Of a stretch of DNA of 64,000 nt, positions 34,366 to 34,429 are shown one piece after another. Made by a program: the position numbers and the translations under genes. The DNA is taken from the sequence record OQ378934.1; one strand, 5' to 3'. The notes beneath the pieces are model-generated. The model was given only the letters and a program-made list of their open reading frames with translations. It did no database searches and was not told the DNA's origin. Within the stretch, counting starts at the first letter, position 1, and every line of letters starts with the position of its first letter. The stretch is from Escherichia phage LH2.

Positions 34366-34405
34366 GCTGTTTACAAGTCCCTCGTGTTGTGTTATAGTAG
34401 ACTTA
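34345..34405 (+). promoter_or_regulatory. T4-type early promoter upstream of alc (GTTTAC 34369-34374, TATAGT -10 at 34393-34398)
   Basis: ctGTTTACaagtccctcgtgttgtgtTATAGTagacttactgacataacatgagga; a near-identical cassette recurs at 46886-46942. Confidence 0.6.
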
Positions 34406-34429
34406 CTGACATAACATGAGGACTTTATG

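Follow-up and report, generated by a model that had tools for sequence, protein, structure and literature searches.

A duplicated early-promoter cassette upstream of alc and alt.-3 in T4-like phages, and a possible role of its spacer in masking the ribosome site

Several genes of bacteriophage T4, including e, soc, 49 and I-TevI (also segB and mobE), are preceded by hairpins that sequester the Shine-Dalgarno (SD) sequence and contain an internal promoter (PMC3014915; PMC2988022). Longer transcripts arriving from upstream fold and are poorly translated, and transcripts from the internal promoter lack the 5' arm (PMC3014915; PMC2988022). According to a 2010 review, the genes under this form of control are all late (PMC2988022). 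A second described system is the PeSL cassette, which the text of the source papers presents as an intergenic early promoter, stem-loop, SD and start codon found at several loci (PMC2839356, Arbiol 2010; PMC4122927, Comeau 2014). [quoted passage not shown] The T4 early promoter itself consists of an UP element, a -35 element GTTTAC, a TG, a -10 element TAnnnT and a start about 7 nt downstream (PMC2988021).

We analyzed a 64,000-nucleotide stretch of DNA from Escherichia phage LH2 (OQ378934.1), referred to here as the window. The phage is a Tequatrovirus (T4-like) and shares ~98% identity with phages including SYGD1 and BF15. The window is oriented opposite to the T4 map, with early genes on the + strand. 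By comparison with T4, the gene order is rnlA, alc, pseT, cd, 31, rIII, 30, alt, alt.-1/alt.-2, alt.-3 and the convergent gene 54. Two closely similar blocks, copies A and B, lie in this region in the following setting.

33205..34365, + strand: rnlA (gene 63) ORF, stop codon at 34363-34365; co-directional with and upstream of copy A
34369..34422, + strand: copy A of the cassette, from the -35 hexamer through the SD, between the rnlA stop and alc; contains the exact 28-mer described below, 50/54 identity to copy B
34430..34933, + strand: alc (inhibitor of host transcription), served by copy A; 98-100% identity to annotated Alc by tblastn
44434..44441, + strand: late promoter motif TATAAATA from a motif scan, 27 nt before the alt start
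44468..46525, + strand: alt, identified by comparison with T4
46529..46914, + strand: alt.-1/alt.-2, a decayed second alt paralogue recognized by homology to Alt
46886..46939, + strand: copy B of the cassette, from the -35 through the SD, before alt.-3; contains the 28-mer, 50/54 identity to copy A
46947..47237, + strand: alt.-3 (96 aa, a protein without assigned function), served by copy B; identified by comparison with T4
47242..47263, both strands: bidirectional intrinsic terminator from a terminator scan, after alt.-3 and before the convergent gene 54

Time-resolved transcriptome and proteome data for T4 (PMC9697503 supplement) place alc and alt.-3 in the early class at both the RNA and the protein level. 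In the same data alt is late, alt.-1/alt.-2 is middle with its protein undetected, and rnlA is early as RNA and late as protein. The position of TATAAATA upstream of alt is consistent with the late class of T4 alt, and this motif is a likely source of late read-through RNA into copy B; neither cassette contains the motif. The terminator after alt.-3 consists of a G+C-rich hairpin of 9 bp with runs of T on either strand. The terminator scan found none between the upstream genes and either cassette, including the interval from rnlA to copy A. Neither site is annotated in the GenBank and RefSeq records of T4.

A sequence-only reading of the window had reported near-identical blocks at 34369 and 46886 and proposed a genome-wide search for a 28-mer that they share. 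The observation held up. The 28-mer, GTTTACAAGTCCCTCGTGTTGTGTTATA, has exactly two matches in the window, at these two positions on the + strand, where shuffled sequences lead one to expect none. The common block extends over 54 nt, from the -35 hexamer GTTTAC to GAGGA, and its four differences fall at the positions listed in that reading; the flanks are unrelated on both sides. A search of phage records located the cassette in 499 of them, approximately all Tequatrovirus and including T4 and T2, at 997 places, so that nearly every record has two; in this search the cassette sequence was absent from other genera. An exact-pattern scan of IMG/VR returned only 7 loci.

The reading had also described the two blocks as far more alike than other early promoters, which is true of the window and not of the genome. 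In a fixed 55-nt frame the copies agree at 50/55 positions; the second-best pair among the window's early promoters agrees at 39/55. With T4 1-77 kb included, imm.1 and e.8 agree at 49/55, an ORF of the denB-ndd cluster and nrdC.8 at 48/55, and another pair at 46/55, against a background mean of 26/55. Because T4 has these other near-identical pairs, copies A and B are outstanding within the window yet represent one of several such cassettes. We also observed that the promoters of imm.1 (T4 27080), e.8 (T4 70696), motA (window 4971), window 1348 and nrdC.10 (T4 55384) form block families with 45-49/55 identity, which share even the upstream AAAATTTTTTCACAAAAC region. Judged from their sequences, T4 early promoters look like a few copy families rather than variants of one consensus.

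The promoter assignment is supported by several features. In a sigma-70 scan of 33-48 kb the blocks rank first and second (11/12 for copy B and 10/12 for copy A), each with an extended -10 TG. Both have the form GTTTAC-N18-TAnnnT, as do about 39 other T4 early promoters, and thus share with the generic T4 early promoter the -35, the 18-nt spacing between hexamers, the TG and the TAnnnT. They nevertheless match the consensus of 39 early promoters at just 31-33 of 55 positions. Unlike the generic promoter, this pair has a spacer and leader of its own, which appear to be constrained by base pairing rather than by polymerase contacts. Furthermore, alt.-3 is early and lies directly after genes of later classes, so its expression requires a separate early promoter, for which the cassette is the sole candidate. 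With the early expression of both genes, these features bear out the earlier description of a promoter-leader cassette and suggest that both blocks are strong early promoters, with predicted start sites. A literature search for start-site maps at the alc and alt.-3 promoters returned nothing specific.

The promoter elements overlap the arms of an inverted repeat, and the parts of each copy are as follows.

34369..34374, + strand: copy A -35 hexamer GTTTAC, of the T4 early-promoter type
34375..34393, + strand: copy A hairpin 5' arm, which is the promoter spacer, with the anti-SD CCCUC at 34379-34383 (minimum free energy, MFE, structure)
34393..34398, + strand: copy A -10 hexamer TATAGT, with TG at 34390-34391, at the top of the hairpin (sigma-70 scan)
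34405, + strand: copy A predicted start, an A located 7 nt past the -10 and in the hairpin loop (sigma-70 spacing rule)
34408..34425, + strand: copy A hairpin 3' arm, including the alc SD GAGGA at 34418-34422 (MFE structure, accessibility)
46897..46910, + strand: copy B core 5' arm, in the promoter spacer, with the anti-SD CCUC (MFE structure)
46910..46915, + strand: copy B -10 hexamer TATAAT (sigma-70 scan), with a start predicted at ~46922
46925..46938, + strand: copy B core 3' arm, with the SD GAGGA at 46935-46939 (MFE structure, accessibility)

A 9-bp dyad around the -10 had been noted from the sequence. In copy B it is indeed perfect, formed by CCTCGTGTT (46897-46905) and AACACGAGG (46930-46938), and in copy A one position of the 9-bp arms is a G:T. 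Nine is, however, an underestimate, because the stem comprises 14-22 bp when the region from the -35 to the AUG is folded as + strand RNA. The MFE is -24.4 kcal/mol for copy A and -23.2 kcal/mol for copy B, with z scores of -4.2 and -5.4, respectively, relative to dinucleotide shuffles, and 0 of 200 shuffles were as stable. The loop, of 14-20 nt, contains the -10 and the predicted start. On the T4 map the two predicted starts correspond to minus-strand positions ~136,300 (copy A) and ~123,057 (copy B). In the copy A structure the SD nucleotides pair with spacer positions 10-14. This copy includes three G.U pairs, and its + strand folds at -24.4 kcal/mol compared with -15.4 kcal/mol for the - strand, a difference of ~9 kcal/mol. 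An Rfam scan of the whole window gave no match at gathering score.

The copy A stem is ~22 bp long with one bulge, and ~22 bp is near the stem length needed by RNase III. The stem on read-through RNA could accordingly be a site for RNase III or other processing, its cleavage separating the cistrons and altering their stability. We regard this as very improbable, given that the stems of other genera have just 10-15 bp and that the literature searched makes no link between T4 early leaders and RNase III.

Accessibility calculations distinguish the two kinds of transcript that may cover these genes. RNA that begins at the predicted start originates within the loop and is missing the 5' arm, which leaves the SD unmasked; this RNA is nearly unstructured (-3.2 kcal/mol for copy A, about -3 overall). 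From the partition function, the probability that the SD is unpaired is ~0 on read-through RNA and 0.5-0.99 on RNA from the copy A promoter. Opening the ribosome site would cost 16-18 kcal/mol on read-through RNA versus 4-5 kcal/mol on own-promoter RNA (for copy B, 16.3 versus 4.4 kcal/mol).

Our preferred interpretation, which we hold to be somewhat probable, is translational insulation, where the hairpin hides the SD on any transcript that did not begin at the cassette promoter. In each block, a sigma-70 (T4 early) promoter would be continuous with the 5' leader of the gene that it serves. Polymerases arriving from rnlA (copy A), or from alt and the decayed paralogue (copy B), would transcribe both arms. 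On such read-through RNA, which we presume to exist in meaningful amounts, a hairpin of ~-24 kcal/mol would bury the SD and leave alc or alt.-3 untranslated. Translation of both genes would in this way depend on their own early promoters and be limited to the early period, and later transcription across the region could go on without making Alc or Alt.-3. By analogy with the polarity mechanism in PMC2988021, untranslated alc on read-through RNA might also be open to Rho. Given that rnlA RNA is itself early, the benefit of blocking alc translation from rnlA RNA is not obvious.

This proposed arrangement resembles that of e, soc, 49 and I-TevI in that a helix predicted to be stable on long transcripts has the SD in its 3' arm, and in that the -10 and predicted start lie in the loop, so that the gene's own transcripts are without the 5' strand. 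It differs in that the 5' arm is the promoter spacer itself. In addition, the promoters in the known cases are late (a few middle) and delay translation, whereas the cassette promoter is an early sigma-70 promoter and its products are early. Because the internal promoter is early and not late, the predicted outcome is reversed, and translation would be confined to the early period.

The main rival to masking is the reading offered for PeSL stem-loops, as an attenuator, a terminator or a stabilizer of 3' ends. The structure would then stop or pause polymerases coming from rnlA or alt, or shield mRNA 3' ends from exonucleases, and its overlap with the SD would be a by-product of packing a promoter, a hairpin and a ribosome site into ~60 nt. 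Like PeSL, the cassette combines an early promoter, a stable stem-loop, an SD and a start codon, and in T2-type genomes it occupies an intergenic position. PeSL stem-loops are often located between the -35 and -10 or span these elements, and the PeSL papers report that an RB49/phi1 stem-loop lowered downstream lacZ about as strongly as rrnB T1. However, no U-tract follows the stem in any genus: the cassette tails are ACUUUAUG or AACACAAA, and the tails in other genera are A-rich. The structure does not qualify as an intrinsic terminator, since it has no U-tract and a loop of 14-20 nt and is not called by a scan that does call true terminators nearby.

Position within the cassette also distinguishes it from PeSL. 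There, stem-loops are read as terminators or attenuators and the SD is a separate 3' element, and the term "sequester" is absent from PMC2839356. For the PST/T4 pair the text of the PeSL papers places the stem-loops just upstream of the promoter, whereas the present stem spans the -10 and takes in the SD. The location of the anti-SD and the inclusion of the SD in the stem, seen in a majority of alc regions (below), would be needless for a pure terminator, although in some relatives and at the window promoters 23096 and 37374 the dyad spares the SD. Unlike PeSL cassettes, moreover, the copies are 12.5 kb apart and flank essential genes, with neither one adjoining an indel of a hyperplastic region. 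Synteny of the rnlA-alc junction extends over 9 genera, and copy B abuts a decayed paralogue with the break in homology ~10 nt outside the cassette. Overall, we consider a terminator or attenuator role on its own unlikely, though a serious contender. The two roles are not exclusive and may coexist.

The comparison of the rnlA-alc junction with ten other T4-like genera bears on what the repeat does. The alc hairpin has a common anatomy in seven genera (Tequatrovirus, Gelderlandvirus, Karamvirus, Kagamiyamavirus, Jiaodavirus, Bragavirus and Dhakavirus): an anti-SD comes directly after GTTTAC, the -10 is within the loop, the 3' arm includes the SD, and the inner-arm sequences differ. The anti-SD (CUCC or CCUC) occupies spacer nt 3-6, and nt 5-9 in Tequatrovirus. 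The MAFFT alignment across genera was out of structural register, and pairing was therefore assessed by a permutation test on spacer-leader duplexes and by pair tables anchored on the distance from the -35. Across genomes, the duplex of a spacer with its own leader averages -20.2 versus -10.4 kcal/mol, and the observed assignment ranks first among 5040 permutations. Sampling of IMG/VR added 36 distinct alc upstream regions, 32 of them with a promoter directly upstream, and at least 3/4 of the SD nucleotides are paired to the spacer in 23 of these 32. Pair types differ on both sides among sequences at 17 of 18 spacer positions; these counts come from each sequence's own predicted fold and are canonical by construction, so it is the permutation test that carries the significance.

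Variation within Tequatrovirus is of the same kind. Among 13 distinct copies (from T4, T2, EO1, pSs-1, BCPShso_001, IMG/VR and the window), 195 of 195 stem cells are paired. The five variable stem pairs show only changes of C-G to U.G, of G.U to A-U or G-C, and of U.G to U-A, and the remaining variation is confined to the bulge, the -10 or the loop. A shuffle control within the genus was uninformative, as the stem changes are all one-sided.

These patterns address the suggestion, also made from the sequence alone, that the repeat is an operator for a DNA-binding regulator. On this view, a dimeric regulator of phage or host origin would bind the dyad around the -10 and shut both promoters. A dyad that brackets the -10 is in the classic position for a repressor, both genes are early, and the mechanism of early-promoter shut-off is incompletely understood (PMC3014915). 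However, the arm sequences vary between genera with complementarity retained, only + strand RNA can accommodate the G:T and other wobble positions, and the early promoters that bear hairpins have no common half-site. Arms that diverge and stay complementary, strand-specific G.U pairs and wobble-compatible substitutions point to a sense-strand RNA helix and not to a protein-binding palindrome. We conclude from the comparison that the dyad appears to act as sense-strand RNA, and the operator proposal is, in our judgment, extremely improbable.

Not all relatives mask the SD. A dyad around the -10 persists with the SD free in Mosigvirus, in Kanagawavirus and in some IMG/VR contigs, implying that the hairpins at these promoters also have some role independent of the SD. 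Two promoters in the window, at 23096-23135 and 37374-37415, have a 12-13 bp dyad around the -10 that stops short of the SD, the geometry of the Kanagawavirus alc promoter; SD masking does not explain the function of these dyads. In Gaprivervirus RZ, alc has no directly upstream promoter and no SD-masking hairpin, and this phage may serve as a natural control for the association of promoter and hairpin at alc. It also has an extra 88-aa ORF between rnlA and alc (L005 221-487), annotated "inhibitor of host transcription," and a terminator-like hairpin after rnlA. Upstream of alc in Acinetobacter phage 133 (L011 404-497) is an 8-bp hairpin, AGUCCUCA...UGAGGACU, which includes the SD and is followed by U6. 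Here the anti-SD is just past a weak -10, and, unlike in the enterobacterial phages, the structure looks more terminator-like.

The history of the second copy can be partly reconstructed from the alt.-3 locus. In Dhakavirus, Mosigvirus, Karamvirus and Gaprivervirus, alt.-3 directly follows alt and has its own early promoter with a different core, containing a small in-spacer hairpin, CACAAGGAnGUG, and leaving the SD free. The flank TTCAAAATGTA, just upstream of the -35, is common to Dhakavirus and Tequatrovirus, and thus only the core from the -35 to the SD differs at alt.-3. The comparison agrees with the earlier idea of a portable unit spread by recombination, in that the alt.-3 core was replaced and the flank kept, and the direction of copying is our inference. 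The two copies evidently share one origin, as judged from their sequences. An alc-type cassette probably replaced the alt.-3 promoter core in a Tequatrovirus ancestor, with crossovers at the conserved -35 and SD ends, a replacement that resembles the PeSL exchanges mapped, in the text of the source papers, between the -10, SD and ATG.

Since a hairpin that masks the SD characterizes the alc locus of many genera, the most economical history is one in which the alc cassette was copied to alt.-3. Identities to the alc or alt.-3 cassettes of other genera are all 34-46/61, and so sequence identity does not polarize the direction. Polymorphisms shared between the two loci are only suggestive with regard to recombination. 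Concerted evolution between the copies is not established, and the alt.-3 copies of T2 and BCPShso have locus-specific variants.

The neighborhood of copy B has itself changed. The alt.-1/alt.-2 segment is what remains of the 5' part of a second, decayed alt paralogue (Alt residues 1-118, ~60% identity), and homology to Alt stops ~10 nt before the copy B -35. The paralogue is intact (685 aa) in T2, EO1, pSs-1 and BCPShso_001, where the copy B cassette is found in a 60-nt intergenic gap; the extension of the alt.-2 ORF into copy B is accidental. In four Tequatrovirus loci the alt.-3 copy is beyond the 13.5-kb flank because a full-length second alt paralogue is present.

Such a history raises the alternative of a neutral relic, in which recombination duplicated the cassette and both copies inherited a hairpin without function. 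Near-identical promoter cassettes are dispersed elsewhere in T4, and shuffling mediated by PeSL is documented. Common descent would cover the two Tequatrovirus copies, but not the occurrence of the same geometry with different sequence in other genera, and it leaves the exclusively pair-preserving substitutions unexplained. We therefore view a functionless hairpin as improbable.

The masking interpretation can be extended to other early genes. A census of 38 units consisting of a GTTTAC promoter and a ribosome site, from the window plus T4 1-77 kb, identified 9 in which opening the SD-to-AUG region of read-through RNA costs at least 10 kcal/mol, where shuffling the spacers gives an expectation of 1.5 and a maximum of 3. 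The cassette is thus an instance of a recurring design rather than an isolated case. The masked units include alc, alt.-3, regB, denV, motB.2, nrdC.8, e.8 and a small ORF in the denB-ndd cluster, and all but e.8 have a visible anti-SD right past the -35. At regB (T4 62797), denV (T4 65413) and motB.2 (T4 8218) the 3' arm of a hairpin of 18-24 kcal/mol contains the SD. The opening energy of modB is also high, independent of the spacer.

A second dispersed cassette pair with SD-masking anatomy was observed. The window promoter at 1836-1896, upstream of a 37-aa ORF in the denB-ndd cluster, matches the T4 nrdC.8 promoter (NC_000866 ~53943-53885) at 48/55 positions. In both, the spacer CUGUUCCUC pairs with GAGGAACAG at the SD, and the hairpins have energies of -23 and -21 kcal/mol. 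An assignment of the 1836 promoter to rIIB was wrong, as it sits in the cluster of small ORFs between denB and ndd.

More speculatively, there may be a Tevenvirinae-wide class of early promoters in which the spacer carries an anti-SD kept by compensatory change, an early mirror of the switch at e, soc and 49. This is a tentative proposal, possible but short of probable, for which the candidates are alc, alt.-3, regB, denV, motB.2, nrdC.8 and the denB-ndd ORF; translation of these genes would depend on the promoter of origin. In the literature searched, which reached neither the Miller 2003 review nor the PeSL figures, we found no description of ribosome-site masking at an early promoter. An early promoter with its spacer as the anti-SD is a configuration that we did not find described, and it combines the known themes of PeSL and of promoters within hairpins. 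The cassette is a real but incremental variant of these two T4 themes.

Current views are not overturned, as all of the component parts are known in T4. Promoter spacers are usually regarded as unconstrained; the cassettes indicate that an RNA function can restrict their sequence. If masking occurs, moving or deleting such a promoter in phage engineering would also remove the anti-SD, and the reading of T4 RNA-seq against proteomics would be affected, in that the presence of RNA would not mean translation. In a subset of early genes, translation would be possible only on RNA that began at the gene's own early promoter. Protein synthesis from these genes would end at early-promoter shut-off although polymerases still cross them, which would bear on the poorly understood end of the early period.
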